Shown here piece by piece: positions 12,362 to 62,174 of a stretch of 64,000 nt of DNA; the stretch's first letter is position 1, and every line of letters begins with the position of its first letter. The notes beneath the pieces are model-generated. The model saw only the letters and a program-made list of their open reading frames with translations, searched no databases and was not told the DNA's origin. A program made the translations under genes and the position numbers. Location of the stretch: IMG/VR virus record IMGVR_UViG_3300045988_079665, one strand, 5' to 3'. The DNA is from a virus.

Positions 12362-12765
12362 TCTTTCTCTCCTCCAATCTTAAACGGTCTACCCTTTTTA
12401 GCTCTAAGATAACCAGAACGATATGCTAAAGCAACAGCCTTAATTACATCACTTTCTGGAACATATGGCTCATAATCATTTTTTGATTCAAATTCTAGTT
12501 CAAATACAGTTGGCAATAATTTGTGATATTCTGTCTTCATACACATACTTTCAAGTTTTGGCTTGAGCATATTGTAGATTTCATCATCTGAAATATCTAT
12601 TTCTTTTTCATACGCAACAATACTATCTTCTGGCTCAATGATAAACTCATAATCTTTCGTAACAATCATAATATCATTCGGTAAAATTCTGACCACTGCT
12701 TTGCCAATACATTCGTAAGAGTTTGTTTTATAAGCTACCTTATCTCCTACTTTGAATTTGCTCAT
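12358..12765 (-). CDS. hypothetical protein
   Basis: ORF track. First gene behind the promoter at 12799-12827. Confidence 0.55.
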   Translation of the reverse strand: MSKFKVGDKVAYKTNSYECIGKAVVRILPNDIMIVTKDYEFIIEPEDSIVAYEKEIDISDDEIYNMLKPKLESMCMKTEYHKLLPTVFELEFESKNDYEPYVPESDVIKAVALAYRSGYLRAKKGRPFKIGGEKE

Positions 12766-12798
12766 AATAAAATCAACCTCCTTATTGTTGATATAGCA

Positions 12799-12827
12799 AT
12801 TATATCATAAAGAGGTTGATTTGTCAA
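12799..12827 (-). promoter_or_regulatory. sigma-A type promoter TTGACA-17-TATAAT
   Basis: attata at 12799-12804 and tgtcaa at 12822-12827 on the plus strand. Confidence 0.75.
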
Positions 12828-12836
12828 GTATTTAAT

Positions 12837-13106
12837 TTATTTAAATGTTGTGTCATCCCAAGGATTGTATTCATATCCACAATGAGGACAATAATTGGAC
12901 ATGCCAATAATCTCTTTCCCGCATCTGATGCACTTATACACATCACCGTAGTGCTCATCAAATTTATTCATTGGAATCCAAAGTAATTCAAGATTATTAC
13001 TTAGTGGTTTATATTTATCACAGATTTCCATTTGTTTTGCATCACATACAGTCAGCTCTTTCTCGCCCCAACATTTATCTATGTTTACCTTAACAAAAAG
13101 TGCCAT
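12837..13106 (-). CDS. zinc-ribbon protein (hypothetical)
   Basis: CIRCG...CPHCG. Confidence 0.5.
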   Translation of the reverse strand: MALFVKVNIDKCWGEKELTVCDAKQMEICDKYKPLSNNLELLWIPMNKFDEHYGDVYKCIRCGKEIIGMSNYCPHCGYEYNPWDDTTFK

Positions 13107-26800: not shown

Positions 26801-28072
26801 GAATGGTTGACGGTCACTAACATTGTTATCAATATCGGGCGGCGTATGGCTATCCAAGACGCGCTCTTTAGTCAAGAATCGCTCTGAATACATAAGGACT
26901 GGACTATTAACCTTATCAACCTTAGTAAGCCGCAAGAGCTTATTGAGATACATAGAGACAGCAGAACCACGCCCTGATGGGGTCAAAATACCGCCATATT
27001 TCTCTTGCCCGCGCTTCATTACCATATATGACAAGATGAAATAATCCGCCATATTACAAGCCTCTATTTCACCTATATCATGCTTAATCTCTTGATAATA
27101 CTGTTGCAGTTTATCCTTGTTAATATCGGCTTTTTGCAAGAACCATTCATCTTTAAGAATCTGCTCAAAGATATGATTGCGTTCCTCTTGAGTTTTATTG
27201 CGCAGCTCTTTTATAACAGGCACTTTCAATGAGCGGTCGAGCTTGATGTCCTCAAATTCAAACAACACATTGGTATTATTAATAGCGGCTTTAATCTGTC
27301 CATCTGTCAATACGCCCTGTTGCTTAAATCGCTCAAATAGAACATCATATGTTGGATAATCCATATACCATCCATCTTCATCCTCATAATGGATGTTGCC
27401 AGATTTAAGCAATTCATCTCTATCGAGCATTTGCGATTCAGTGATAACATGACTATCACACCCAGCAATAAGTGGAATTCCATAAAATTTTGGCAATAGC
27501 AAATGCTCATTTAATTGCTTCTGCGCTAATGTATCATGGGCTTGCACTTCAAGATAGAAATGCGGAAACTTATGTGCCAGTTTAATAACAATATCGTCTA
27601 TATTGTTATATTTATTCCAGAAAGCAATGCAAGCCGTTGTAATCATCACATCATCGTATGGCAACTGGTCAATCAATTCAAGATCAATGCGAGGACGTGC
27701 ATAATATCCATCCTTATTGGCAATAGATAAAATTTTATTGATTGCTTTACGCCCTTTATCGGTTCGAGCTAATAGCACAATATGGCAGTTGCTTCTATCT
27801 GACTCATGCCTGTTTTTTACCCAATATGCTTCAGCGCCATATATCCATCTGATATTCGTGCCATTCTTCTTATTAAATTTTTCTAAGTCATCATATTGAT
27901 TGAAATAATTACCAGCCCATCCATGCTCTACTGTGGTATAGATGCACGGTTTATCTCCATATCGCGCTTTTAGCTCATTCCAATAATCAACAGGCAAGAG
28001 CGGGCTATCTTTCATATAGCGATTACTTAATGATGTATGTTTATGGTAATTTACCCAAATTGGTTCATTCAT
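23810..28072 (-). CDS. dnaE: DnaE-type DNA polymerase III alpha subunit (PHP + polymerase core), interrupted by an intein
   Basis: N-terminal PHP NYHKHTSLSN, plus GRGSAVSMYLN and GFNSAHAYCMA motifs. 1420 aa including a 340-aa in-frame insertion. Confidence 0.9.
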   Translation of the reverse strand: MNEPIWVNYHKHTSLSNRYMKDSPLLPVDYWNELKARYGDKPCIYTTVEHGWAGNYFNQYDDLEKFNKKNGTNIRWIYGAEAYWVKNRHESDRSNCHIVLLARTDKGRKAINKILSIANKDGYYARPRIDLELIDQLPYDDVMITTACIAFWNKYNNIDDIVIKLAHKFPHFYLEVQAHDTLAQKQLNEHLLLPKFYGIPLIAGCDSHVITESQMLDRDELLKSGNIHYEDEDGWYMDYPTYDVLFERFKQQGVLTDGQIKAAINNTNVLFEFEDIKLDRSLKVPVIKELRNKTQEERNHIFEQILKDEWFLQKADINKDKLQQYYQEIKHDIGEIEACNMADYFILSYMVMKRGQEKYGGILTPSGRGSAVSMYLNKLLRLTKVDKVNSPVLMYSERFLTKERVLDSHTPPDIDNNVSDRQPFIQAQRDLVGELGTYDLLALGTLKFKAAWKMYARAHNVEPDTANEVSKQIDQYETAKKHAEDGETVDIHKYIEPKYQELVDGCKKYLGIYDTAKGHPCFTADELVMTSNGYKKIKDITIGDNVLSSDGQYHKVKQLFITSNVDDIYNVVAYGSPAIQVTSNHPFYTKKRNKNPTWKTVEQLEQGDLIGVPINQLSRLPILNFVDSTNLDFWWCIGRYFGDGWRSHTVRKSGEKVGQKIKNVIICCNKNNDETNKILSHASWCKTRIAKEVTTNKIYFKSKELYDWLGEFGDYAIGKRLTGTILNLPVEQLKSFLQGYFSADGHFDKVTKCQIFSTINKELALGIVACINKAYNRPCSLIKSRQDRIEKIQGRIVNSHTQYRGEFHYEARKQDKALYEDGMIWVPYRNKTKLEEIQTVYNFEVEDTHTYTVNNLLVHNCGCLCYEGDIESDIGISLCKSEATGKEVLVANIESGTIDAFGYLKQDYLIVDSIGLTYDIYKEAGIEPFTVNQLLEKIAHDDATWQIYADGYTQCVNQCEQPRSTQKVMRYKPKNIAELTQFIAAIRPSFQSMYQTFEQRQHFDYGIKALDDLLQDEYCSSSFILYQESLMKVLGFAGFPMSETYTIIKAISKKKDYIIKDAKPKFIKNFAQAILDTGETNDDNKAHELADKVWTIIENSAAYGFNSAHAYCMAIDSVTIAYLKAHYPLEFYKCVLQRFTDKGEKDKVALIKQEMLKRGYKLKDIQFGDDNRAFNIDRANNCIVQTMASIKDMPKSAPEALYELGKTDIKNRAALYQALMDDPRINKKAIEILFHLGYFDKFAQPNRLIAEYEIYQKYISAKVLTKSSFDDIMIDVIRPCCDKETEKQFREINNKALITALIKQANIKPATIVDRIKWQLEYLGYCTVNDPNSDPNDWLVLDVKTTGYGKIYCTLYNLCYGAERTYRANKKFWTNHQLSKGDVARVVLQEKNKMKKDENGEWVTLSEKIVEMKCWKKLEV
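25493..26512 (-). mobile_element. intein with double-motif LAGLIDADG homing endonuclease (aa 521-860 of DnaE)
   Basis: Starts CFTADELVMT and has block B TSNHPF. LAGLIDADG-like motifs are IGRYFGDGW and LQGYFSADGHF. Ends VYNFEVEDTHTYTVNNLLVHN followed by Cys+1. Exteins join as GHP|CGCLCYEG. Confidence 0.85.
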
Positions 28073-34829: not shown

Positions 34830-35368
34830 AATTTCCTTTTAATTTCCTTTCGATTTCTAATAAAATTTTATTAAAACAAGTCGCAATGTTCATGCGCATA
34901 TTGACTTGATATATAGGGTTATTTTGTCGCACTATTAACTACTTACAGGTACTCACTTCACCAAGCCCTATACTATTTGCGCGGAATAGGATTATCACCA
35001 CACTATAAGCACATTTTCCAGTTTTGCTCTTCGGATGGTACTAGATGAGATTCGACCAACAGCCAACCTTAGCAGTGACGCGCGTTATTTACTAAGGATT
35101 TTTAGAATTGCCACACTCTCTACAAATTCATGTTAAATTGAATTTACAGTTGCGCAACCATCTTAAAATCAAGAGTGTGGCGACGTTGCCTCATAGCATC
35201 AAGTGGTCAGCTATCAACTATTCAGCAACTAGCATTATAACCTATAAACTAGACTATCCGCAGTGACCAAATCTTGAGGACTGTCTTACAAAGCTAGGAT
35301 TTTCGGCTTTTCCACCAGACGGCTATCAAGTGTGCTTACAATGCTAGTAGAGGCATGATAGACGTTTT

Positions 35369-35441
35369 TGACCGTGGTAGGATTCGAACCTACATCTCAT
35401 CCGCTATGAACGGAGAGTATTACCAATTAGGAGACGCGGTC
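35369..35441 (-). tRNA. tRNA-shaped element with Met-type CAU anticodon loop but no pairing D-stem
   Basis: GACCGCG/CACGGUC acceptor (one C-A mismatch). A14/G18G19/A21 are in place. Anticodon arm CUCCG-UUCAUAG-CGGAU, T arm GUAGG-UUCGAAU-CCUAC, A73. D-stem UCCU vs AUAC pairs at only 1 of 4 positions. Confidence 0.4.
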
Positions 35442-35448
35442 ATATGGA

Positions 35449-35562
35449 AATGGGCTTTAAGCGTCAACCCATTAGAAGCATTGGATTCCTATTCAGTTTA
35501 TTAAGTCGTATGTATCCAACAACCAGTGGACTTTGGTAATGGGCTTTAAAGATAAACCCATT
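35449..35562 (-). repeat. twin hairpin modules (AATGGG...CCCATT-AGAA) 89 nt apart
   Basis: Copies at 35449-35473 and 35538-35562 share aatgggctttaa...acccattagaa. Confidence 0.6.
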
Positions 35563-35880
35563 AGAACTAATCAGCAAGTCTACACTCTAACCTAGTCCTA
35601 AGACTGCTAGAACCTCTCCACATTTTTGTATGCCTCGCCTCGACTTACTGATTGCAACTATAATTAGTATCCCTTAGTTGCCTAGGGGCCAATCCCTGCT
35701 TAATCCGTCTGGTTCTCGTTATCGACATGATTGACTGCATATGCCTTTATGCTGTTAAGCAATTTAATTTCCTCTCACCAGCTCGATTTGCATTTGATAA
35801 CGAAGTGCTTATGACCAATTCTCTTCTCCGTATTAGTAGTCTATAAACCAGCCACTATATATCGTTTCAAGTGGACTTAA

Positions 35881-35959
35881 TGGTGCGGGATAGGAAAGTC
35901 AAATCCCTACGCCTTACGGATTTTGAATCCGCTCCCTCTGCCGATTGGGGTACCGAGCC
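35881..35959 (-). ncRNA. tRNA-shaped chimera: Leu(CAA)-like 5' half joined to a T-arm/acceptor/CCA 3' part that does not pair with it
   Basis: 5' half is GGCUCGG-UA-CCC(C)-AAUCGGCAGA-GGG-A-GCGGA-UUCAAAA-UCCGU. 3' part is AGGGA-UUUGACU-UUCCU-AUCCCGC-A-CCA. The acceptor strands are not complementary. Confidence 0.3.
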
Positions 35960-36637
35960 ATATTTATCTTAAGCCGACTTTCTACCTCATAGCTATTTCT
36001 AGCATCGGCTCGTGAATGATGTTTACATATGATGTGCTATCACGCCAAAAAATCCATGTTGCTAAGGCATATCCCAACACACAACATAATGCTTAGCAAG
36101 ACAAATTTGTGTGCCAGTAGTCGCTAACTACTCTTGGGAACAAGTGAATATCGAACTACCATTTCTGGACGGTGCGACCGATTTATTCTTGTGCAAAGCA
36201 CTATGTTCATTCACTGTTAGTGACTCGCGATCAGGCTTCCTCTGATTTAACTGTCACCATTGCCACGATTTACTCCTTAGACGATGGCTGCCTCTAAGCC
36301 AACATTTCATATGTATGTAATATCCTTATATCACCTTTGCCGTTATGTTTTTGCCCTCATGCTAACGGAACACGCTCAGGCGCGACCCCAATTCTCTATA
36401 AGCTATCTGCCGCTTCTCAAACTCTGCACAGACCTGCTTCACAGGCGTGATATAGATTTGACGGTTATCTTCAAATCCGGTCGGATATTATAAACGATGG
36501 CTGTTCATCTCACTCCATTTACTACTGCTCCTGTGTTCCAAAGATTCTATATTGCTATTCATTATCGGCTTTGCCGTCCTGTCTTACCGGGCGCTCATAA
36601 TCTTTAGCTTCGTAGCACCATCATCTTTACATTCTCA

Positions 36638-36666
36638 ATTATAGCATACTTGATTTCATTTGTCAA
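36638..36666 (-). promoter_or_regulatory. sigma-A type promoter TTGACA-17-TATAAT driving the ORF-free RNA locus
   Basis: attata at 36638-36643 and tgtcaa at 36661-36666. The upstream TGA stop lies inside the -35. Confidence 0.75.
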
Positions 36667-36809
36667 GTATTATTTTTGAAATTATTATTTATTTTTTCTA
36701 AGATTTCTTCCATTTGCACATTGGCTTTAGTCCAATGATATACGACTATCAGCATCCCAACTGCAACACCAACCGCAAATGAACCTAAACAAGCTAACAG
36801 AATAATCAT
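36663..36809 (-). CDS. small membrane protein (48 aa)
   Basis: Hand translation MIILLACLGSFAVGVAVGMLIVVYHWTKANVQMEEILEKINNNFKNNT. Confidence 0.4.
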   Translation of the reverse strand: MIILLACLGSFAVGVAVGMLIVVYHWTKANVQMEEILEKINNNFKNNT

Positions 36810-36871
36810 ACACTAATAATCAATAAATTTTCCCAAACTCTTTACCCTACAAACTTACCTTACCTAATTAA

Positions 36872-37111: not shown

Positions 37112-37329
37112 ATTATCACCTCATTGATAATTGGTTCCGTTTATTATTATCTAATGCCTTATAAACGGTTTCCTTAAAATTTGGCCCCTACTTTATACAC
37201 TCATAGGTGAATTGTGGTCAGTTAACGATTGATTTCTGAACGAATTGATTTTTGGCTCATACAATCATAACCCGCAATTTCAACTGTTTGTTTAAGTGTT
37301 AACTGAAATTGCTTTAACTGCGATCACTT

Positions 37330-37422
37330 TGGTACTGGCGCTCGGACTCGAACCGAGATTTTGCGGCAATCGACCGCTAAACTGTGTATAGGACAGCTGG
37401 CTTACCATTAACCGACACCAGC
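37330..37422 (-). tRNA. class II (long variable arm) tRNA with non-canonical anticodon loop CCUAUAC (nominal anticodon UAU, C33)
   Basis: Full cloverleaf: GCUGGUG/CGCCAGU acceptor (2 G-U), D arm GGUU-AAUGGUA-AGCC, anticodon arm GCUGU-CCUAUAC-ACAGU. It has a 23-nt variable arm with a GCGG/CCGC stem, T arm CUCGG-UUCGAGU-CCGAG, A73 and encoded CCA. Confidence 0.6.
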
Positions 37423-37520
37423 ATATTTGAGCCTTTTATCGTCATGCTCAGGACTATATTTTAGGAGGTTCACAATGAAGAACTGTAATTGAGATTACCC
37501 AATCTCTCAACCACATCTGT

Positions 37521-37549
37521 ATTATATCATATGAGTTGCTGTTTGTCAA
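37521..37549 (-). promoter_or_regulatory. sigma-A type promoter TTGACA-17-TATAAT upstream of the tRNA
   Basis: attata at 37521-37526 and tgtcaa at 37544-37549. Confidence 0.75.
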
Positions 37550-37559
37550 GAATTATTTT

Positions 37560-42123: not shown

Positions 42124-42152
42124 TATATATCACATTTAATTCTATTTGTCAA
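42124..42152 (-). promoter_or_regulatory. sigma-A type promoter TTGACA-17-TATATA
   Basis: tatata at 42124-42129 and tgtcaa at 42147-42152. A T-tract array lies upstream. Confidence 0.6.
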
Positions 42153-42157
42153 GTACA

Positions 42158-42243
42158 ATTTTCAATTTTCATTTTCTGAATAGGAATATTGATTTTCAAT
42201 TTCTAACTTGTTTTTCATTTTCGAAAATCATTTTTCATTTTCT
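42158..42243. repeat. phased T-tract array (TTTTCATTTTC / TTTTCAATTTC units)
   Basis: At least five ATTTTC-containing units immediately upstream of the 42124-42152 promoter. Confidence 0.6.
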
Positions 42244-42769
42244 AGCCCGTACATACATAGATATTTATATACATATCTATCTGCACATACATTTACATAT
42301 TCATATGCAGATTCATCTGCATCATCATGCATATAAATGATGTAGATAGATGTATTTATAGATAATACGTGGCTTTGTGTCTATAAATATAAACGCCACA
42401 TTTACTTTCATGCACATATCGGCAAACATATTAGCACCAAAGTCAATGTCATTCACATTTTTCATATGAATATATGTGAATATTCACACATTTTCCCAAC
42501 AAGTTTATGTATTGATTTGCCGCTTTTTCTATTTAGACATATAGATATATACTATTATCATCAGTCTATTACATGCACACATTATTTTGTATAGATATAA
42601 TGCTTGATTGTCAACTATGGCAGAATCGCCGCAATTAGCTGTATTGCACCATCTGCGTCTCACTATGCCAATTTCAACGCAATCTCATATACATACTAGA
42701 CTCGGCGCAAAAGTCCGTTGTACGTCATCAGAGCCGCACCGCCACGATTATATGTAGGCATATATTACT

Positions 42770-42955
42770 GGGGAAAATCTGCATAGCTTAAGCCGCACAC
42801 ACACATGAGAAAAATCTAGTCGATTTTTTCGCGCCGAGCCAGTGTATGTACTGTATATAGTTGGGGAAAATGTAAAAAATTGTAAGGTCACATATACGCG
42901 AGGATTTTTTGCATCGATTTATTGCTTCATTTGAATAAAGTGTATCTGGGAAAAT
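42770..42955 (+). repeat. three direct copies of GGGGAAAAT / GGGAAAAT ~85-92 bp apart
   Basis: Copies at 42770-42778, 42863-42871 and 42948-42955. The first two share ~30 bp of upstream context (TATGTA...TATAT..T.GGGGAAAAT). Confidence 0.6.
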
Positions 42956-43187
42956 ATGATAATTGGAAACCACTGGCAATTTAGTTAAATGTCTCTAACT
43001 CATGGCCGACTTTCCCCTCCTCATAGGTGCTTCCCTAGGTCACTTTAATTATAGCAGATCGTGTGCCATATGTCAACAAAAAAATTTGTACAAAAATAAG
43101 CCACCCATTTTAGGCACATTGTACAATGCTCTTCTGGCGGCTTTGGCGGCTTTATACGGCGCGAACTATGCTAGAGCTATAGAAAAC

Positions 43188-46128: not shown

Positions 46129-46379
46129 TGTAATAACCTCCAGATAATGTATTATTGCCTTGTGGCTTGTTTATAATATAGCAGACTATGCGCCATTTGT
46201 CTATCTTTTTATAATGTTTTTTTGTATATTTTAATATATGGTTATTATATATATTATATGTATATGCGATCAATTTACTACAATGTTATTGTAAGGCCAC
46301 TGGAGCCGTTTTAAGTAGTTTTCAGGTCGAGCCGTGTTTTTATATGCCTGATCTTTTTATTCCGTTATACAGTTTTTAT

Positions 46380-46800
46380 ACAGTTTGATTATTCATTGTT
46401 TTGATAGTAAATAGCTATGATATACACTTAGAAAGTTAGAATATACTAGAATTACATAGATTATTGTATAGATATGATATGCATATACTACATATTTATT
46501 CATTTATTGCTTATTGGTACAGTGTCTTAATAGTTATATAGATATAATTATATCGATATTGATTATTGTATATTTTTATCGATATATTATATCGGTATAA
46601 TTATCTATATAATGTACTGATTATAATAGTTACAATATTGTAACTATGTATTACAAAGTAGTAACAGTATTTAAATATCGATATAATAGTATTGAATATG
46701 GTATCTTGTGTGGTATATTAGATGTTATTGTATGTTATAGTAGTTGGTATGATATAGATAATGGGGTAAATGATAGTAAATAGGGTTTATTGCATGGAGT
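46380..46800. repeat. AT-rich iteron/palindrome field (candidate origin or operator array)
   Basis: ATATCGATAT at 46550-46559 and 46675-46684, TATCGATAT at 46577-46585, and a near-copy at 46588-46599. GTTACAATATTGTAAC palindrome at 46629-46644. TGATAGTAAATAG at 46402-46414 and 46771-46783. GATTATTGTATA at 46459-46470 and 46561-46572. Confidence 0.6.
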
Positions 46801-46921
46801 AAATATGGTTTACCAAAAAGCGTGTATCAGGTAACACGTACGCGAGTATCTAATTTTTTGCAATCGATTTTGACAACAGAAATTTTAGACTATTCTAAAA
46901 ATCCGGAAAAATCAGTCTATA

Positions 46922-46944
46922 ATAATAGGAATCATTCCTATTAT
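46922..46944. repeat. perfect 11-bp-arm palindrome ATAATAGGAAT-c-ATTCCTATTAT
   Basis: Read directly at 46922-46944. Confidence 0.7.
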
Positions 46945-47204
46945 AGCCCGATACGCCGGCAAAGTGCTATTTTCAGGCGTTTTTTAAGATGGTAGCATTT
47001 TCCAGTACGGGGGCTAGGATATGGATGGGAATGGTAGAAATGGAAGAAATTGGCATTTAGCACAACAAGCTACATACCATGTAATCACATCATAAATTCA
47101 TATAACCCACGCATCACTATTTAGCAACAATTCACACAACCCGTAACAGATATTATTTTCCCCATCATAATAATTTACAATTTGTTAACAAATAGATGAT
47201 TAGA

Positions 47205-47216
47205 ATATGGTATAAT
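47205..47216 (+). promoter_or_regulatory. extended -10 promoter element ATATGGTATAAT (no good -35)
   Basis: Identical 12-mer to the -10 region of the 53437-53465 promoter. Precedes the 47339 gene. Confidence 0.5.
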
Positions 47217-47256
47217 TAGATGATGATAAAAAAGTTGTACAATCGCTGATACTAAT

Positions 47257-47274
47257 ATAATACGTTAGTATTAT
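47257..47274 (+). promoter_or_regulatory. hairpin/operator ATAATAC-GTTA-GTATTAT sharing the AATACGTTAGTATT core with 53476-53497
   Basis: Read directly; lies between the promoter and the RBS. Confidence 0.5.
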
Positions 47275-47338
47275 TATAGTGTCACGCAATGTACAAAAAT
47301 TTTACATCAATGTACAAAAAAATAGAAAGGAAGAAAAT

Positions 47339-54335: not shown

Positions 54336-56924
54336 GTGCCATTAACAGAGTTCTGTTATATACCTTCTGTGGCAACGGATGCTTTTTATACGCCAGAGGA
54401 ACAAGTAATACATAATCGACTTGTCAAGCTATATGCCTTGAGAATGCGCGAGAAGAATGGTCAGAATCGAAAATGGCGTGTTTCATCAATTAACCGTGTT
54501 ATCAAGAAGCATAAAGATGAACTTGTTGAGTTGCTGAGAAAATCGCTTGAAGACAACATTACAAGAGAACTTAATCCAGATGCGGTAACAGATAAGACAA
54601 TTATTAACCTGTTTTGTTCTGAGTTGACTCGTAGCCTTGGCATTAAGACATTTGAGCGAAGTGACAAAATTATTATTGTCAATGTTTTCTTTTTCGAGGT
54701 ATTAAACAGCATCATTCATAATGGATTCAATTACAATGGGGAGCATTATATTTTCTATTCATGTGGCGCTGGCATGATACGTACAAAGCGATTTATGGCT
54801 GTTCGTGAAAAAGATTATTTGGCGGTTGAACAAACCCTCATGTGTGGACTGACCATTGAATCAATCAATGCGCTGGGTGGCATGAATGAAAATAAACTAT
54901 TGAGCTATAAGAGCCTTATGGCATCTGCAACAGATAGAATTACAGACTTTGACATAGACCGTTGCATTATAGTTGATGATTTCGAAATGCCAGTTATGGC
55001 TGAATCAGATTTCATTGATTATACGGATTATAGCATTACGCGTAAAACATCAGAGACAATTATAGCTGAAACTGACGGTTGGGGAATGTGTTGCAAGCCC
55101 GGATTTAAGACACAGATTGTTCGTGCGCCTTGGATAAAAGGACTAGTGTCATACTTTGATTTTAGGGCATGGTTAAAGGAATATTGTCCTGCCGACGATT
55201 GGACTGTAACTGATATATACGGAAGAGAATGGAATATTATTGTGGATGACATTCAGTATATATTAACTAAATCAATGTTTAAGTTGTATAAATTTTATCC
55301 ATCTTGGCTTTGCTACAAGACTAATTTTAAGAGTTATGGTTGTTATTTTGGATGCTGTAAAGTTGAGGAAGATTATATACCAAAGGCGCGAATCAATTAT
55401 CAGATGCTTCAATCTCTAAGTGATATGACGGATAATGAGATTGAGCGGCTTATTGCCAAGACAGCAGATGAAATTAATAGTGTCGGGAGAGATTATCAAA
55501 CTACCATGAGACTATTAGGCGCGACTGAATACAATCAAACAAAATCAGCCATGCAAGAAGCGTTGACAATATATCCAGAATTATTTAAAGATGCGTATAA
55601 CCGGGAGTTGTTGAAACAGACAAAGAAAAGTTTGGTAAAACAAGCAAAAGGTGGCAGATTGAGAATTAACGGCAAATACCTGTTTATTTCGCCTGACCCT
55701 GTGGCATTTTGTGAGTGGTTGTTCAAAGGTGAGCAATTCCCAACTGGTATACTTGAGAATGGAGAGGTTTATACTAATCAATTCAAAGATGGTGACGAGC
55801 TTGATTGTTTGAGAAGCCCACACTTGTATCAGGAACACGCGGTTAGAATCAACAAGCGAAATGGGCTGACCGATAAATGGCTTGGCGGAACAAAATGCAT
55901 ATATTTCAGTGCACACGATATGATTAGTCGTATATTACAACAGGACTTTGATGGGGATATTTCCTTGGTTGTGAAGGATAAGACGTTGACAACTGTGGCA
56001 AAGCGCAATATGCAAGGAATTGTACCGTTATCGTATGACCTCAAAAAAGCACGTGGCGGTATTATTGATGCGGATAGACTGTATGAAGGTGTAAGTACTG
56101 CATATACAGGTGGGTCGATTGGCCCGATTAGTAATGCAATCAGTAAGGTAAAAAATGCTAATGGTGGTAAAATGACTGAGGAGCAAATTAGAGTAATTGC
56201 TTGGCTTACAATGAAGAACAATCAAATTATTGATTTTGCGAAAACGTTATGGAAAAGTGAGCCACCAAAAGAAATTGCAGATATTATAAAAAAATATACA
56301 AAGTCAAAATTGCCTCATTTTTTTATCTATGCCAAAGACAAAGACCCAGATACTCAAGTTGAGTTGCCAAATAATTCCACGATGAATCGTATATCAGCCA
56401 AAATCCCTACTTCTCGAATTCGATATAATAACAAGATTGGGAAATTCGATTGGACGATGTTGATAAATAAATCAGTCGATTATACTACTAGAGAAAATTC
56501 ACCAATCATTGAGCGGTATAATTGGTGGATGTGGAATCAGCGCCGATTTGATTATGGCGATGACCCGCATATCAATGAGGACGATTTATATAAATATCGT
56601 CGCATAGCACAAGATATTGTGGAATATAGCAACGAGCCACTAGATGTTGTGGCAAATAGCCTAGTTGCTTATCTATATACAGTTAAAAAATCAAGCAATA
56701 AGAAAATGCTGTGGGCTTGTTTCGGTTGGACGATTGTAGAGAATTTGAGAACCAATACGGCGCAACTTAATCCAATCTGTCCCATTTGCGGCAAGCGCTT
56801 CAAGCCGCGAGATGTATGTCAGCATTATTGCTCAGAGGAATGTTATAAGAAAGCAGATAATCAGAGGCGTACTGAATCGCGCGAAGCCCCACCTGTCCGC
56901 ACGGGGGACATGTTAAAACAGTAG
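54336..56924 (+). CDS. YonO-like single-subunit two-barrel RNA polymerase
   Basis: 862 aa. DFDGD metal-binding motif at nt 55944-55958 (ILQQDFDGDISLVV, compare beta-prime NADFDGD). An upstream YIFYSCGAGMIRTKRFMAV segment resembles the first-barrel motif of RdRP/YonO-type enzymes. C-terminal zinc ribbon CPICG...CQHYCSEEC. GTG start behind GAGGTG. Confidence 0.7.
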   Translation: MPLTEFCYIPSVATDAFYTPEEQVIHNRLVKLYALRMREKNGQNRKWRVSSINRVIKKHKDELVELLRKSLEDNITRELNPDAVTDKTIINLFCSELTRSLGIKTFERSDKIIIVNVFFFEVLNSIIHNGFNYNGEHYIFYSCGAGMIRTKRFMAVREKDYLAVEQTLMCGLTIESINALGGMNENKLLSYKSLMASATDRITDFDIDRCIIVDDFEMPVMAESDFIDYTDYSITRKTSETIIAETDGWGMCCKPGFKTQIVRAPWIKGLVSYFDFRAWLKEYCPADDWTVTDIYGREWNIIVDDIQYILTKSMFKLYKFYPSWLCYKTNFKSYGCYFGCCKVEEDYIPKARINYQMLQSLSDMTDNEIERLIAKTADEINSVGRDYQTTMRLLGATEYNQTKSAMQEALTIYPELFKDAYNRELLKQTKKSLVKQAKGGRLRINGKYLFISPDPVAFCEWLFKGEQFPTGILENGEVYTNQFKDGDELDCLRSPHLYQEHAVRINKRNGLTDKWLGGTKCIYFSAHDMISRILQQDFDGDISLVVKDKTLTTVAKRNMQGIVPLSYDLKKARGGIIDADRLYEGVSTAYTGGSIGPISNAISKVKNANGGKMTEEQIRVIAWLTMKNNQIIDFAKTLWKSEPPKEIADIIKKYTKSKLPHFFIYAKDKDPDTQVELPNNSTMNRISAKIPTSRIRYNNKIGKFDWTMLINKSVDYTTRENSPIIERYNWWMWNQRRFDYGDDPHINEDDLYKYRRIAQDIVEYSNEPLDVVANSLVAYLYTVKKSSNKKMLWACFGWTIVENLRTNTAQLNPICPICGKRFKPRDVCQHYCSEECYKKADNQRRTESREAPPVRTGDMLKQ

Positions 56925-57012
56925 GAAATATATGGATAAAATTAACTCACCACAATATGTTGTGGTAGACTAATAGGGAGACATATCTTTGAAATGAAGG
57001 GTGGTGAATGTG

Positions 57013-58104
57013 ATGGCATACATGGCTTATAAATTTAGGATGTATCCCAATACTGAACAGGAAAATCTTATAATAAAGACATTTGGTTGTGTTCGGTTTA
57101 TTTATAATAAGATGCTTGAAGATAAAATAAAGTTTTATGAATGTACAAAGAAAAGATTAAATAATACTCCCGCACAATATAAAAAAGAATATCTTTGGTT
57201 AAGAGAAGTTGACGCTTTTGCTTTGTGCAACGCACAAATTCATTTGCAAGCAGCATATAATAATTTTTTTAAGAATCCAAAGAGCGGGTTTCCTAAATTT
57301 AAGAGTAAGAAAACGGGCAAGAATAGTTATACAACAAATAACCATTCGGAAAATATAAGGATTGTAGATAAAACTATTAAACTTCCGAAACTTGGAATGG
57401 TTAAAATAAAGCAACACAGAGAAATCAAGCAAAATCAAAAAATTAAGTCTGTTACCATCACAAGAAAACCATCTGGGAAATACTTTGTATCAATTTTAGT
57501 TGAATATAATATTGTTGAAAAGTCGGTAAAATTAAATAAGGAAAAATCGATTGGACTTGATTATTCAAGTCATAGCTTTTACGTCGATAGCCAATGTGTA
57601 GAAGCAGATTATCCACGATTTTATCGAGCGTCTCAAGATCATTTGTCCAAAGAGCAAAGGAAGTTGGCTACAATGAAGAAAGGTAGCAACAATTATTATA
57701 AGCAAAAAGTAAAAATTGCTACTATTCAAGAAAAAATAGCAAACCAAAGAAAAGATTGGATGCACAAATTAAGTACAGAATTATCAAATAAGTACGATTA
57801 TATTTGCGTTGAAGATATAAATTTACAACAAATGTCACAGCATTTAAATCTTGGGAAATCTACATATGACAATGGATTTGGTATGTTTAGAGATATGCTT
57901 TTTTATAAATTAAAGCAAAGAGGGAAAAAGTTCATCAAGATTGATAAATGGTATCCATCTAGTAAAATGTGTAGATATTGTGGCACGATAAATTCTAATT
58001 TAACTCTAAGCCAAAGAGTATGGACATGTGAATGTGGAAAAGTGCTTAATAGGGATGAAAATGCAGCGATTAACATATTGAACGCTGGATTAAGTATGAT
58101 ATAA
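57013..58104 (+). CDS. tnpB: TnpB RNA-guided endonuclease (OrfB_IS605 + zinc ribbon)
   Basis: MAYKFRMYPNTEQ N-terminus. RuvC triad candidates IGLDYS, ICVEDINL and NRDENAAINI. Zinc ribbon CRYCG...CECG. Confidence 0.85.
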   Translation: MAYMAYKFRMYPNTEQENLIIKTFGCVRFIYNKMLEDKIKFYECTKKRLNNTPAQYKKEYLWLREVDAFALCNAQIHLQAAYNNFFKNPKSGFPKFKSKKTGKNSYTTNNHSENIRIVDKTIKLPKLGMVKIKQHREIKQNQKIKSVTITRKPSGKYFVSILVEYNIVEKSVKLNKEKSIGLDYSSHSFYVDSQCVEADYPRFYRASQDHLSKEQRKLATMKKGSNNYYKQKVKIATIQEKIANQRKDWMHKLSTELSNKYDYICVEDINLQQMSQHLNLGKSTYDNGFGMFRDMLFYKLKQRGKKFIKIDKWYPSSKMCRYCGTINSNLTLSQRVWTCECGKVLNRDENAAINILNAGLSMI

Positions 58105-58200
58105 ATAAAAAATAACCGTAGGGGCTACGGAGTTAGCTTGTTGATACTTATGCTTTAAGCATATTGAGCAAGAAATTTGTTGAAACACAAATAGCCCACT
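58105..58200 (+). ncRNA. 3' part of the putative omega (right-end) RNA scaffold of the TnpB element
   Basis: Stacked hairpins immediately after the tnpB stop: CCGTAG/CTACGG, GCTTG...GCAAG enclosing ATGCTT/AAGCAT, and TTTGT/ACAAA. Confidence 0.45.
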
Positions 58201-58218
58201 AGGGAAAGGACGATATAA

Positions 58219-58638: not shown

Positions 58639-59194
58639 ATATAATAAGCTGAATCAAGAATTTTATGCTTATGCTGGTGGATTGCTCAATGTATCGCCAC
58701 AGACTGCCAAGAAATATTGGATGGGGTTTGTTGATACTATCATCCATATTCTTCATTTTGATGGCAAATGCCAAATGCCAAGTGTAGGCACATTTACACT
58801 AGAAGAATTGCCTGAGCGTAGAGTAATGGCTAAGAATGAGCAGGGTGAACTTGTTGAGCAAATTAACCCTGCTTGGTTTAAGATATTATACAAATATAAT
58901 GAGGATTTTCTTAATAACGTAAATGGACGCGGCGTTACAAAGAAATATCGTAGGCGTGTTCGTGAACGTAAGTTGACACCAAATGATCTCAAGCTGATAA
59001 CTCAAGCTGAAATGGAACGAACGGCAAAGCGAACATTAGAGCAAATGCAAAATGAGCGCATTGAGAAAGCAAAGCAACAGAGCTATGATGATTTTATCAA
59101 TGTCATCAATCAGAAAAAAGAAGATTATGAACGGAAAAAGAAGGAAAAGGAACAGAAATTGAATGAATCTAATGAAGATACGACAAGCGACTGA
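58631..59194 (+). CDS. divergent HU/IHF-fold DNA-binding protein (paralog 2) with Lys/Glu-rich tail
   Basis: NQEFYAYAGGLLNVSPQTAKKYWMGFVDTIIHIL...SVGTFTLEE...FKILYKYNEDF. Start set at MAEYNK, overlapping the upstream stop. Confidence 0.45.
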   Translation: MAEYNKLNQEFYAYAGGLLNVSPQTAKKYWMGFVDTIIHILHFDGKCQMPSVGTFTLEELPERRVMAKNEQGELVEQINPAWFKILYKYNEDFLNNVNGRGVTKKYRRRVRERKLTPNDLKLITQAEMERTAKRTLEQMQNERIEKAKQQSYDDFINVINQKKEDYERKKKEKEQKLNESNEDTTSD

Positions 59195-60347
59195 GCTGCT
59201 AGATAGCAAATTGATTGACTTGCAAGAATGGACGGCTCGTTGTCTTGGTGAGGATTATAGGGGCGTCTGGTCAGAGGAATATTTACGTCGATGTGCTGTG
59301 TTTGTTCGCAATATGCTAAATGGCGCAGACGATTGTGAGTCAGACGAAAAAGACGCTGAGATTTTAGCCCAGCTTAAAGAAGCAAAAATTGAGTTAGAGA
59401 AAGAACGCAAGAAATTACAGAGCGAGAATATTCAGTATGTTCAAAATCAGAGACTTGACGCAAGAGCAGACTTGATTCAAGAAAAGATTGCTGAGTCGAT
59501 TAAGAACCTTGAGCCGTTTACTATTCGTGAGTTTAACATTCTGCCGCAAATGAATGTAAGTGGACTTCTTTGTATTTCTGACCTTCATGCTGGCTCGACC
59601 TATGAAATCAAGGGTGCATATAATGAAATTGTAAACAAGTACAATTTTGATATTATGAGGGCGCGGCTTGATGGGTTGCTTAACAAGATGTGTAATGATG
59701 ACAACTGCATCTGGATTGATGATATTACGGTTGCTGTGCTCGGTGACTGCGTAGAGAATATTTTACGTACATCTAGTTTAACTAAGCTAAGAGAGCCAGT
59801 TATTGATACGGTTATCAAGTTGTCTGAATATCTGGCTGATTGGTTTGTTGAGTTACATGACCGGCTTGAAATTCCTGTTAATGTGGTGATGGTTGGTGGT
59901 AACCATGATGTATGCCGCCCGTTGACATCTAAGCCACAGTTTGAGGAAGAAAATCTAGGTAAAATCATTGTATGGTATCTACAAGAGCGGTTAAAGTCAG
60001 TAGATGGAATTACAGTTGATGATTACACAGATTGTGCTATTAAATACATTAAGAACAATGCAATCATGCTTCATCATGGGGATGGCGGCGATGTAACTGA
60101 GACAATGCGATATTTTGAAAATTTATATAATATTGACATTGATGAATGCTACGTTGGGCATCTACACCGACAAGAAATGAAGAATGCTGGTATTACTGAG
60201 TTAGGTGATAAACTGTGTTGGCGCGTTGGCTCGGTATGCGGTGTTGATGGATTTGCCAAGTCTATTCGTAAAGCATCAAGACCATCTTGTATGTTTACTA
60301 CATATTCAGAAGATGGTGCAGAATGGCGTAAAACATTTTATCTTTAA
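59163..60347 (+). CDS. calcineurin-like metallophosphoesterase with coiled-coil N-terminus
   Basis: Motifs ISDLHAG (DxH), LGDCVEN (GD), GGNHD, LHHGD and VGHLHR. Confidence 0.7.
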   Translation: MNLMKIRQATELLDSKLIDLQEWTARCLGEDYRGVWSEEYLRRCAVFVRNMLNGADDCESDEKDAEILAQLKEAKIELEKERKKLQSENIQYVQNQRLDARADLIQEKIAESIKNLEPFTIREFNILPQMNVSGLLCISDLHAGSTYEIKGAYNEIVNKYNFDIMRARLDGLLNKMCNDDNCIWIDDITVAVLGDCVENILRTSSLTKLREPVIDTVIKLSEYLADWFVELHDRLEIPVNVVMVGGNHDVCRPLTSKPQFEEENLGKIIVWYLQERLKSVDGITVDDYTDCAIKYIKNNAIMLHHGDGGDVTETMRYFENLYNIDIDECYVGHLHRQEMKNAGITELGDKLCWRVGSVCGVDGFAKSIRKASRPSCMFTTYSEDGAEWRKTFYL

Positions 60348-60349
60348 TA

Positions 60350-60378
60350 TTGACAATCAATAGATTATGTGATATAAT
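60350..60378 (+). promoter_or_regulatory. sigma-A type promoter TTGACA-17-TGaTATAAT firing into an ORF-free region
   Basis: ttgaca at 60350-60355 and tataat at 60373-60378, with TG at 60370-60371. Confidence 0.75.
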
Positions 60379-60384
60379 ACAACT

Positions 60385-61306
60385 ATGGAATTGCGGCTAA
60401 TATCTGCGGAGTTAGCCTTGGCTTGGGGATGCGTCCTACAAGTCTCATAATAGAGGAAAAGTCTGAACTCTTTTCGCCGTCACAAGACGGAATTTAGAAC
60501 AATCGGTAGCGTCAGTTGCAAATGGCGCTACCAACTTAAATTGATTCATTCTCTGCTAGGTGATAGCTATTTTAGCTGTGTTAATCATGCTTGTGGGGCG
60601 ATTGACCCACCTAGTAGAGTTGGATATCTTCGCCGTGAATCTGCAATTCAGCAGAGCCTGATACGAGCGTGTCATATACTGTGGCGAGATATGACAATTT
60701 ATCTCGTGTACCATGCGTACATGGAGTTTTCAGGGTCGTTTATGGCGGCTCTTGCAAAATCCTATCCTTGACGATAGGCGTATAGCAACAGGTGTGTTAT
60801 ACGAGCGTATGAAGCATAGAACCGGGTTGTCTTTCGGCAATATGTGGACGTTAATCGAAGGTTTGCGGTATACCATATGGCAACAATGAAAACCGCATCG
60901 CCATTAGAACGATGCAAAGGCGAGATGTGATGGCATCTAATACCCATTGCACCATAATACCGAGCGACACGGTAAATATGTCGCACTTGTAAAATGATAA
61001 AACATAACAATGAGTGGCGCTCGATACCGGCATGCGCTTGATAAATACCGGACATTGATGAGTCCCTAGGCAAGGACAATAAACTACCTGTCGCTACTAC
61101 TCATTGGCGGCTATGAATATCCGAAAGGAGGTCACTATTCTCTTGAATTATCCACTGGTTTATCCGAAGCATAATTAAAGAAAGGATGGTGGTCAGAGCC
61201 AATCGGCTCATATCTACAATAAGCCCAACTCAATGGGAACTGTTGTTTAACTGAATATTGAACCTTGACAAATACAAAGCAGCTGAGAGCAATCTTGGCT
61301 GCTTTG
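60385..61306 (+). ncRNA. ~0.9-kb promoter-to-terminator ORF-free transcript; candidate large structured RNA
   Basis: No RBS-led ORF. At least 9 local 5-7-bp hairpins (for example 60505-60532, 60685-60706, 60779-60803, 60895-60915, 60964-60984). GC-richer by eye than the flanks. Confidence 0.5.
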
Positions 61307-61316
61307 TCATATTTAT
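61275..61316 (+). terminator. terminator-like hairpin ending the ORF-free transcript
   Basis: CAAAGCAGC (61275-61283) pairs with GCTGCTTTG (61298-61306), followed by TCATATTTAT. Confidence 0.5.
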
Positions 61317-61349
61317 AGGAAAGTAAACGGAACAGAAAGGAATGAGAAT

Positions 61350-62174
61350 ATGTTTTGCCCATATTGCGGCAAGGAAAAGCAAGACAGCCAATTCTATAAA
61401 AGCCCAATCAAAACGGGCGAATATATTAAGCCATGCAAATCATGCGTAACTGAGATATATAAACAAGCTCTTGAATCTACTAAAGACCAAGGCGCGGCAT
61501 TATGGTCAACTTGTATGCAGACTGGCATTCCCATGAGACGTGCTGAATATACGGCTTGTCTTGATACGCTAGAAAAGGCGGCTAAAGGTAAAAAGCCTAG
61601 TCTATTTATGTTGTATCATACATACTTATCAACATCTCCTGATAAATTAACAGGCGTATGGGATAGCGATATGGAGTTGTCTAATTTCAAGGATTTGGGC
61701 GATGTAGCTAAGGGTGAAACAGATGAAGTTGCGCTTAAAGCAAGATGGCGCAAACAATGGGGCGGTGACTATGAAGATGAGGACTGTCAATGGCTAGATG
61801 ATATGTTCGATAGCTATACGGCAGATATATTTGAAATGGATACCGCTATGGAAATGCGTTATCGTGATCTGTGTAAGCTAGAACTTGAACAGTATAAAAA
61901 TGGTGTTAATAAAGACACTCAAGCACAGATCAAAACGTTAATGTCACTACTTAAACTTGATGATTTTAAGAGTAATCAGAAGTCGGACGCGGAACGAGCA
62001 TTTGAGAAACGTATAGCTTGGGTGGAATATACTAAACCATCTGAATGTGAAGATTTGACAAGATTCGTAGATATGGTTGGATATGAAAAGGACAAGGGTG
62101 AAAAGATGCGTAGCTTGCGCAACGCTGTTGCTGGCACTAGAGATTATCCAGCAATCCCGAAGGAGGAAGCATAA
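61350..62174 (+). CDS. putative small terminase / packaging DNA-recognition protein
   Basis: Immediately upstream of and overlapping (TAATG) the large terminase. N-terminal zinc ribbon CPYCG...CKSC. Confidence 0.4.
   Translation: MFCPYCGKEKQDSQFYKSPIKTGEYIKPCKSCVTEIYKQALESTKDQGAALWSTCMQTGIPMRRAEYTACLDTLEKAAKGKKPSLFMLYHTYLSTSPDKLTGVWDSDMELSNFKDLGDVAKGETDEVALKARWRKQWGGDYEDEDCQWLDDMFDSYTADIFEMDTAMEMRYRDLCKLELEQYKNGVNKDTQAQIKTLMSLLKLDDFKSNQKSDAERAFEKRIAWVEYTKPSECEDLTRFVDMVGYEKDKGEKMRSLRNAVAGTRDYPAIPKEEA

Follow-up and report, generated by a model that had tools for sequence, protein, structure and literature searches.

Drum and DUF3800-VIII are already known as RNA families, and such motifs have been marked in the GenBank record of one SPbeta-like phage. 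Drum (Rfam RF02958) was described by Weinberg et al. in 2017 (PMC5737381) and its k-turn has been characterised (PMC8191799); since the 2017 description, neither drum nor the eleven DUF3800 RNA motifs are known to have been given a function. Elsewhere, the abiF-motif RNA RCd22 neutralises the AbiF toxin in the manner of a type III antitoxin (bioRxiv 10.1101/2025.04.15.648962), and phage PhiTE evades ToxIN with a pseudo-ToxI RNA (PMC3475682). Here, we analysed a 1002-nucleotide (nt) non-coding unit in a 64,000-nt stretch of viral DNA (IMG/VR virus record IMGVR_UViG_3300045988_079665), which we call the window and which comes from a large Firmicutes phage akin to Bacillus phage SPbeta. The unit is the entire intergenic region between a Metallophos exonuclease gene and the gene of a terminase small-subunit-like protein (TerS). 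A preliminary description had taken it for one large structured RNA made by the host RNA polymerase. Our comparison with relatives indicates that it is very probably a string of about nine small RNA modules, which fold and are inherited separately and of which the last is a leader with a terminator. The literature that we searched held no account of phages stringing unrelated small RNAs into one fast-evolving unit, nor of such RNAs as orphans of nuclease cassettes, nor of the CAUGUAC motif described below.

Relatives were fetched as 25 viral contigs via TerS and 20 via the exonuclease; the 24 close relatives are called sister phages here. A blastn search (distant mode) of the unit against 50,697 phage records gave no match, and no relatives of TerS were found in species-representative genomes. 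The unit comprises the following features.

60350-60378, + strand: host sigma-A-type promoter with extended -10 element (TTGACA-N14-TGATATAAT; 17-nt spacing, 12/12 with the TG)
60395-60445, + strand: M1, two hairpins (60395-60417 and 60420-60444)
60446-60535, + strand: M2, three hairpins (60456-60475, 60477-60490 and 60505-60532)
60536-60627, + strand: M3, a three-way junction (paired span 60545-60624)
60628-60695, + strand: M4, two hairpins (60640-60655 and 60671-60695)
60703-60752, + strand: M5, a small-RNA motif with no Rfam match, made of a box CUCGUGUACCAUGCGUACAUGGAG (60703-60726) and a variable hairpin (60732-60752)
60761-60803, + strand: two accessory hairpins ahead of the drum core (the first, at 60761-60778, with UUGAC as its loop; the second with the CGTATA/TATACG stem at 60779-60803)
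60804-60900, + strand: divergent drum RNA (RF02958) without the P3 hairpin (37.6 bits against a gathering score of 43)
60893-60996, + strand: M7, the most variable part of the array (hairpins 60895-60915, 60923-60938 and 60964-60984)
60997-61115, + strand: M8, closed by AAUGAGU/ACUCAUU (~61010-61105)
61116-61262, + strand: structured leader 'H' (invariant core 61143-61179 with an AAUUAU/AUAAUU hairpin; hairpins 61196-61209 and 61216-61246)
61274-61307, + strand: intrinsic terminator-like hairpin of 15 pairs, followed by CATATTTATA, 43 nt 5' of the TerS start codon

The intergenic region measures between 258 and 1506 nt in the 24 sister phages, and its alignment to the window splits into blocks with sharp edges (60348-60450, 60451-60535, 60536-60627, 60628-60695, 60696-60769, 60770-60895, 60896-61115 and 61116-61349). 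A multiple alignment yields a pan-array of about 1.7 kb, in which the blocks are occupied in 1 to 24 genomes and in many combinations. The array consists of about nine modules of 50-135 nt each that are won and lost separately, and parts of it are also reordered in sister phages, between which modules, DUF3800-VIII RNAs included, are exchanged. Two sister phages (L001 and L011) retain the last ~260 nt alone, while one further sister carries solely an HNH endonuclease gene 5' of that segment. The blocks fold locally and most of them show compensatory substitutions, with few non-standard cells. Identity to sister phage L012 reaches 99% in the drum block and 97% in the last block, whereas the TerS protein is 72% and the exonuclease 46% identical; the modules are thus better conserved than their surroundings. 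Judged by these alignments, the region is composed of two parts of different age, namely a variable accessory array (~60385-61115) and a conserved leader and terminator of the terminase operon (61116-61349). In L008 (2872-3669) and L013 (2623-3123), the same intergenic region contains free-standing endonuclease genes of the HNH and NUMOD4 types, and such homing endonucleases may help drive the mosaicism.

Structure, absence of coding capacity, a host-type promoter and a terminator, all part of the preliminary description, were borne out, but a single large RNA was not: the parts are kept, dropped and reordered independently in the sisters, and some of them are stand-alone small RNA families elsewhere. 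A single ornate RNA of the ROOL or GOLLD type, with a variable periphery, would account for the kilobase size, the stability, the phage context and the unit's own promoter and terminator, and ROOL and GOLLD, which are long, highly structured and non-coding themselves, are likewise phage-associated (PMC5737381). However, the unit is modular, matches neither ROOL (RF03087) nor GOLLD (RF01998) at the gathering threshold or at E <= 10, and resembles no other large-RNA family of Rfam even at E <= 10, where the window returned only transfer RNAs (tRNAs) and a sub-threshold drum. The sisters share no core: setting aside H, itself a distinct element, each part is absent from at least one of them. No long-range helix with covariation support was identified within the unit, and module types of the array occur as stand-alone small families elsewhere. 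We regard the single-RNA explanation as very improbable.

It is well supported that the region is a promoter-to-terminator unit for the host RNA polymerase that encodes no protein. The promoter agrees exactly with its consensus and belongs to a class (TTGACA-N14-TGnTATAAT) with 25 window sites at <=2 mismatches compared to 2.06 +/- 1.41 expected, 14 of them being perfect; transcription would start near 60385. At the other end, the hairpin at 61274-61307 is the strongest + strand terminator-like site, with three covarying pairs, and a different hairpin with a T-run takes its place in L214. The sequence thus displays a sigma-70-type promoter and an intrinsic terminator, though the T-run (CATATTTATA) is imperfect and modest in length. 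The GC content of 42-46% exceeds that of the flanks (37-40%), and 60385-61316 folds on the + strand with a minimum free energy of -305.3 kcal/mol compared to -257.3 +/- 6.3 kcal/mol in shuffles (z -7.6), with z -5.6 on the - strand and -0.6 for a coding control of equal length. On promoter, closing hairpin, composition and strong structure, the preliminary description was therefore accurate. It had also judged three tracked open reading frames (ORFs) to be non-coding. Pfam and PHROG searches of these ORFs gave no match, and owing to frameshifts, stops and block deletions they are rarely intact in the 24 relatives (60541-60771 (+) in one, 60762-61079 (-) in none and 61135-61407 (-) in nine); an additional ORF at 60713-60889 (+) is intact in none. 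Given the lack of family matches and of a conserved ORF, we rejected a coding reading of the region. Of the outcomes that the preliminary description had named as contrary to its view, neither a conserved protein-coding frame nor a lack of conservation or covariation was found, compensatory pairs being present in nearly every module.

The promoter and the module that follows it occur in 13 of the 24 sister arrays; the remaining 11 are without the promoter block and begin right after the exonuclease stop codon. M1 co-occurs with the promoter, in presence and absence alike. A perfect 12/12 extended -10 promoter in antisense orientation lies in the 3' end of the divergent exonuclease gene of L012 (3092-3121, -) and L001 (3639-3668, -); in these genomes, whose exonuclease gene is divergent (46% identical), the + strand promoter of the array is missing.

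No copies of the modules were found elsewhere in the window. The consensus fold of M1, derived from 11 distinct sequences, has 22 pairs, eight of which show one-sided variation, with 5 of 242 cells non-standard. The array begins at M2, immediately 3' of the exonuclease stop codon, in L014 and L021. M3 is present in 21 of 24 arrays and folds into 31 pairs (two covarying, nine with one-sided variation, 7/558 non-standard cells); matches to its core pattern in viral contigs were confined to sister phages. M4 occurs in 8/24 arrays and has five covarying pairs among four distinct sequences, and the combination of M4 and M5 is also found in L248, a phage contig of 82 kb that differs in all else (128 nt at 85-92% identity). 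M7 consists of several sub-segments that are present or absent, with seven covarying pairs in five distinct sequences under a weak alignment, and one 48-nt sub-module of it recurs at 91-94% identity in a distant clade of phages, where TerS identity is down to 35%. M8 is found in 17-18 of 24 arrays, and the L021 array holds a diverged second copy of its type. As for the nine local helices listed in the preliminary description, all are present at the coordinates given there and most are kept or compensated in the relatives. In M2, CCGTC/GACGG at 60477-60490 shows a compensatory C-G to U-A change (13 of 14 distinct sequences). Two pairs of GAGCC/GGCTC covary, and GCGGT/ACCGC turned out to be the closing helix of the drum model. 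Two helices did not survive comparison: CGAGAT/ATCTCG gives way to a covarying GTCATAT/ATATGAC hairpin (60671-60695), and CCATG/CATGG to UGUAC/GUACA, which is part of the conserved CAUGUAC box.

This box defines M5. Its consensus, CUCAUGUACCAUGyGUACAAGGAG, comprises 24 nt and is invariant and capable of forming a hairpin; we define the motif as this box followed, 2-5 nt on, by a hairpin of at least 7 bp of variable sequence. The window holds a single copy, which agrees with the box at 22/24 positions and has a hairpin starting 5 nt after it, with 0 copies expected by chance at two mismatches. The two deviating positions face each other in hairpin 1, where A.A becomes G.U. The second hairpin has standard pairs in 94 of its 98 basal cells, 4-6 different pair types at each position and a mean z of -2.7; since folding set the register, this count is biased towards structure. 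Rfam 15 contains no family for the motif. The exact 22-nt box CATGTACCATGNGTACAAGGAG was found in 36 viral contigs from several samples, many of them 120-240 kb long, and in a single contig of a 596-Gb genome collection (185,579 genomes), which is probably the same phage as one of the viral contigs. The M5 block of sister phages is 84-88% identical to a stretch of Bacillus phage Goe14 located 25 nt 5' of the DUF3800-VIII RNA of that phage, and a sister-array module of L021, termed M7b, shows 75% identity (65-77 nt) to what lies immediately 5' of the box in jumbo phages. Modules of this kind thus circulate among very different phages.

The position of the box in other phages points to a further explanation. 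In L257, L263 and L279 it sits between two tRNA genes on the same strand, with tRNA-like spacing, and in L252 it immediately precedes a tRNA gene. The array might accordingly supply helper RNAs for translation or RNA metabolism, such as substrates, guides or decoys of RNA-processing or tRNA-targeting enzymes, with no antitoxin role. Phage tRNA arrays are indeed similar in that they contain many small structured RNAs on one strand with shared promoters and rapid gain and loss, and the CAUGUAC motif and skipping-rope RNA occur within them; M7b beside the box in jumbo phages and the exposed AAGGAG in the box fit as well. On the other hand, the array of the window contains no tRNA and its modules have no tRNA fold (ARAGORN and Rfam placed the only tRNAs of the window at 35368-35442 and 37330-37422), while drum and DUF3800-VIII are partnered with specific nucleases and not with translation genes. 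We consider the helper-RNA explanation rather unlikely. The skipping-rope RNA of L252 (5618-5687, 51.8 bits) lies within a phage tRNA array that also holds the CAUGUAC motif. We also considered the box, being invariant, single-copy and 5' of late genes, as a late promoter of the YonO polymerase. This was rejected as the main explanation: about 6 of 24 sister phages have no box near TerS, in other phages the box lies between tRNA genes, and the hairpin after it covaries, which suggests selection at the RNA level.

The module with the best described relatives is drum. The window copy scores below the Rfam threshold (E 4.8e-5 in a local search, 1.8e-3 for the whole window), while orthologous copies at the same array position exceed it (L013 44.8, L005 43.3 and L024 44.9 bits), so that its membership rests on orthology. 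The k-turn-type loop joining P1 and P2 (UGAA...GGA) is present, with the cmscan alignment running GCGUAUGAAGC...UGUGGACGU, and the P2 stem shows a compensatory change from CCG/CGG to CUC/GAG among sister phages. Of the core (GGGUU...ACC.CAA and a GAAAA closing helix in the family), GGUU...ACCA and GAAAACCGC are found, and 16 model positions of P3 are reduced to 1 nt. One pair of the accessory hairpins at 60761-60803 is seen as G-C, G-U and A-U, and a bacterial drum (L109) is preceded by a hairpin that shares the UUGAC loop but not the stem. Unlike a usual drum, the window copy has no P3 and stands within a longer array; neither the 3' intrinsic terminator nor the PBECR4 gene on the same strand that make up the usual context is present, and the hairpin 3' of it has no T-run. 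A second drum (49-56 bits) occupies the gap between the gene of the terminase large subunit (TerL) and the portal gene in sister phages, beginning right after the TerL stop codon (L012 6694-6807, L004 6671-6784); its equivalent in the window would lie at ~64020, just past the end. This copy has neither promoter nor terminator of its own and is thus embedded in the late operon.

In bacteria, the drum pattern was found at 93 genome sites, mostly in Lachnospiraceae, Blautia and Faecalibacterium; 80 of these were analysed and 65 had enough downstream sequence. A PBECR4 gene (~212 amino acids; PF18813, E 1.6e-40), predicted to encode a barnase/EndoU/colicin-like RNase, lies 3' of drum and in the same orientation in 39 of these 65 loci, and an intrinsic terminator separates drum from the gene in 38 of 41. 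L109 shows the complete layout of promoter, drum, terminator, ribosome-binding site and PBECR4. Among viral contigs with a canonical drum, about 19 of 27 also carry PBECR4 and seven are orphans. DUF3800-VIII (RF03075) exceeds its threshold of 40.2 bits in four sister arrays (L013, L014, L016 and L021; 47.8-54.3 bits). Its pattern was found at 18 sites in species-representative genomes, mostly of Oscillospiraceae and other Clostridia, and all are true members (47-78 bits). In at least 10 of these 18 loci, the 3' end of the RNA lies within a few bases of the 3' end of a convergent DUF3800 gene (PF12686, called by Pfam at E 1e-10 to 4e-13 and by a local profile). DUF3800 is an RNase H-like domain tied to retrons, Cas12a2/a3 loci and mobile elements (PMC7736814, PMC10910872, PMC13594972), and the DUF3800 proteins adjacent to the RNA match the PADLOC defence candidate PDC-M04A (E 6e-24). 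By analogy with described systems, the drum-PBECR4 and DUF3800-VIII/DUF3800 layouts are typical of pairs of an RNA antitoxin and a nuclease toxin. Arrays of three (L055 4512-5692) and seven (L066 2983-6906) twister-sister ribozymes, at 74-83 bits each, lie a few kb from DUF3800-VIII RNAs in Colidextribacter and Oscillospiraceae contigs and are another case of small structured RNAs in tandem.

The nucleases themselves were not found in the phages. Profiles of DUF3800 (E <= 1) and PBECR4 (E <= 10) had no match among six-frame ORFs of the window and 54 phage loci centred on the exonuclease or TerS, nor did either profile at E <= 1 in 46 loci covering 10 kb on both sides of the portal gene. Pfam likewise detected neither domain in 46 ORFs of the window and 10 late ones, and no PBECR or MuF domain in genes 3' of the portal gene. 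The resemblance to type III toxin-antitoxin loci has two sides. A bacterial drum precedes a terminator and a nuclease gene, and the phage holds the RNA without the toxin, but the array strings together many unrelated RNA types and not one, and it shows no sign of tandem repeats. Measured against what defines a type III antitoxin, there is no nuclease gene in or adjoining the unit, and neither its fold nor its segmentation hints at a tandem repeat (no repeat finder was run). When nhmmer profiles of ten units were compared with about 100 bacterial drum and DUF3800 loci, matches arose only in the drum and DUF3800-VIII parts. An apparent match of unit U5 in bacterial loci was discarded, as it was due to DUF3800-VIII sequences inside the U5 alignment and not to the window's own sequence.

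The modules could also be non-functional debris, i.e. remnants of RNA-plus-toxin cassettes and recombination scars at a hot spot for mobile-DNA insertion 5' of the terminase genes. The extreme length variation, the HNH and NUMOD4 genes inserted at the site in L008 and L013 and the state of the window drum (sub-threshold, no P3, a following hairpin without T-run) agree with such decay. Yet the modules are better conserved than the flanking genes, their helices are kept by compensatory changes, the promoter is perfect and strong, the fold reaches z -7.6, and the motifs recur in phages with RNA polymerases that are only 40% identical. Debris is in our view an improbable explanation.

The last block differs from the array in its constancy. 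Block 61116-61349 (~235 nt, H and terminator) is present in all 24 sister phages, and H forms the whole spacer between exonuclease and TerS in the clade of L214-L217 (portal protein 67-68% identical). Its identity amounts to 95-97% in most of the sister phages compared and to 77% in L022, the TerS gene being 86-93% identical over its alignable part. Besides an invariant core of 37 nt, H contains two hairpins with covariation between clades. In 19 distinct sequences of H and terminator, 96.3% of cells pair, and eight pairs change on both sides compared to 1.9 +/- 1.1 in shuffled alignments (0/500) and 0-3 in slid controls. These comparisons favour a view of H as a structured and conserved element that serves the terminase operon as a leader or insulator, and 5' of which the accessory array would have been built up. 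Within the invariant core of H, at 61125-61179, a perfect AAAGGAGG is followed 11 nt on by a TTG-started ORF of 11 codons (MNYPLVYPKHN), which every sister phage has without a single nucleotide change, while L214 shows one His-to-Tyr exchange. This ORF may encode a leader peptide, act as a stabiliser through ribosome binding or be a coincidence.

The main rival to an antitoxin-like role is that part of the region, and certainly H, serves as a leader or in regulation. The whole region might act in cis on the late operon of packaging and structural genes, supplying a start region, elements for RNA stability, processing sites or control of termination for late transcription by the YonO-like polymerase. 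H always lies directly 5' of TerS, the distant clade included, and covaries; the terminator stands 43 nt before TerS, and a second drum lies within the late operon, in the gap between TerL and portal gene. In SPbeta, moreover, the late transcript of YonO starts 5' of 'an unannotated non-coding RNA' and yonK (PMC5467207), and the syntenic stretch of Goe14 contains skipping-rope, the CAUGUAC box and DUF3800-VIII. Against this, L001 and L011 do with H and nothing else, which shows all other modules to be dispensable; modules are also found in unrelated settings, within tRNA arrays and beside nuclease genes, the array has a host-type promoter of its own and a terminator between itself and TerS, and no element is common to H and the Goe14 region. 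We judge such a cis-acting role of the whole region to be unlikely, if less so than the other alternatives.

The comparison with Goe14 (OL580764, our L244) deserves detail. From hup (yonN) to the next forward gene it has 1.86 kb with almost no coding sequence, where the GenBank record marks skipping-rope and DUF3800-VIII (Rfam scores of 31.3 and 52.5 bits). Like the unit of the window, this yonN-yonK stretch lies 3' of the YonO polymerase and HU-like genes and 5' of late genes, and its DUF3800-VIII is an orphan. The two differ in that nhmmer profiles could align only the ~40-nt CAUGUAC box of Goe14 to the window; Goe14 has neither drum nor H, and no consensus host promoter was found in its stretch. 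The published SPbeta start site (position 2225998 of B. subtilis 168) could not be mapped onto Goe14. An RNA-rich stretch at the matching place indicates that an RNA-rich locus ahead of the late genes is common to SPbeta-like phages. A small ORF on the opposite strand of Goe14 (12724-12903, -) lies directly after DUF3800-VIII, and the annotation includes an SR6 type I antitoxin at a distance of a few kb.

What, then, would be the benefit of such an array to a phage? Because two RNA families of such arrays stand next to nuclease genes in bacteria while the phage has neither of these nucleases, we propose that the array RNAs are orphan antitoxin mimics. A primary transcript of ~0.93 kb would be made early or in mid-infection; small stable RNAs, probably released from it by cleavage, would bind proteins and so act in trans. 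The array would thereby supply orphan antitoxins or immunity mimics against nuclease toxins of resident prophages, defence islands and competing phages, and the rapid module turnover would be the trace of an arms race with these toxins. Array architecture and orphan antitoxin-like decoy role taken together, as one joint reading, fall just short of an even call in our estimation, and the decoy mechanism is put forward by analogy as a tentative proposal. About as tentative is the image of an 'antidote operon', in which one transcript carries changeable orphan RNAs, each matched to a different family of nuclease toxins in gut Clostridia. Possible targets, named with equal reserve, are PBECR4 RNases, DUF3800 RNase H-like proteins and others that are carried by prophages and defence islands.

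Several points weigh against an antitoxin-like role. The putative antitoxin function of drum and DUF3800-VIII is drawn from analogy with RCd22-AbiF and pseudo-ToxI, and the processing of the array into small RNAs, like its expression, is predicted from sequence. The window drum is sub-threshold and without P3, DUF3800-VIII gave no match at E <= 10 in 60000-61700 of the window, and for M1-M4, M7 and M8 no relatives were identified. The CAUGUAC motif is essentially confined to phages (one hit in 185,579 genomes) and so has no bacterial toxin partner; it is associated with tRNA arrays of jumbo phages. A PADLOC search of PBECR4 gave no match, and PBECR4 may serve phages as a weapon instead of defending the host. 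As the promoter module is missing from 11 of 24 sister arrays, these would need read-through transcription. Finally, the start of the SPbeta late transcript 5' of a non-coding RNA implies late, cis-linked expression, which suits a leader better than an early antidote.

The genomic setting agrees with the preliminary description, which had placed the unit between a cluster of RNA polymerase, HU-like and phosphoesterase genes and the terminase genes. The neighbouring genes are as follows.

54336-56924: ORF of a YonO-type single-chain RNA polymerase (phrog_8308, E 1e-225)
57001-58104: TnpB gene, followed by an HU-like gene and an ORF of no known family
59163-60347: Metallophos exonuclease gene, ending just 5' of the non-coding unit
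61350-62174, + strand: TerS gene (phrog_3314, E 9.6e-16), outside the RNA unit and setting its 3' limit

The YonO-type polymerase is 40% identical to proteins of the SPbeta group and of Clostridium phages, and TerL, 3' of TerS, extends past the end of the window. The TnpB (IS605 OrfB) gene between the polymerase and HU-like genes has Cas12f1-like TNB, OrfB_IS605 and HTH domains. Its insertion spans about 56925-58218, and since sister phage L198 has ~70 nt at that place, it is specific to the window. A DNA polymerase III alpha-like gene (23810-28072, -) contains an intein, with Intein_splicing and Hint domains at residues ~520-860. A distant relative, L054, has a group I intron (7701-7988, 92 bits) 3' of the terminase genes. 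Further stretches of the window are free of ORFs of at least 70 amino acids on both strands (34830-36871, 37112-37559, 42134-43001 and 46274-47278), and several of them adjoin perfect consensus promoters on the - strand (36638, 37521, 37762 and 43048). The stretch at 34830-36871 contains a tRNA-Met, and in all of these stretches Rfam finds only two tRNAs. The second, a tRNA-Ile with anticodon TAT (37330-37422, -), is 93 nt long and has a 20-nt insertion 3' of the anticodon arm, at the variable-region position of the Rfam tRNA alignment. One of the ORF-free stretches is presumably the 'first' non-coding unit of the preliminary description, and these stretches may be RNA arrays of the same kind.

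Drum and DUF3800-VIII occur in toxin-antitoxin-like layouts and phages gather such RNAs without the nucleases, which leads to testable predictions: the RNA would neutralise the nuclease and the array would protect the phage. If true, this would give a function to drum and the DUF3800 RNA motifs, and drum-PBECR4 would constitute a new type III-like toxin-antitoxin family. The CAUGUAC motif, highly conserved and essentially confined to phages, links the arrays to the tRNA arrays of jumbo phages, and an RNA-rich locus stands at the head of the late genes in SPbeta-like phages from Bacillus to gut Clostridia. Kilobase-sized 'gene deserts' in phage genomes may thus be operons of small RNAs, not single long RNAs or junk.

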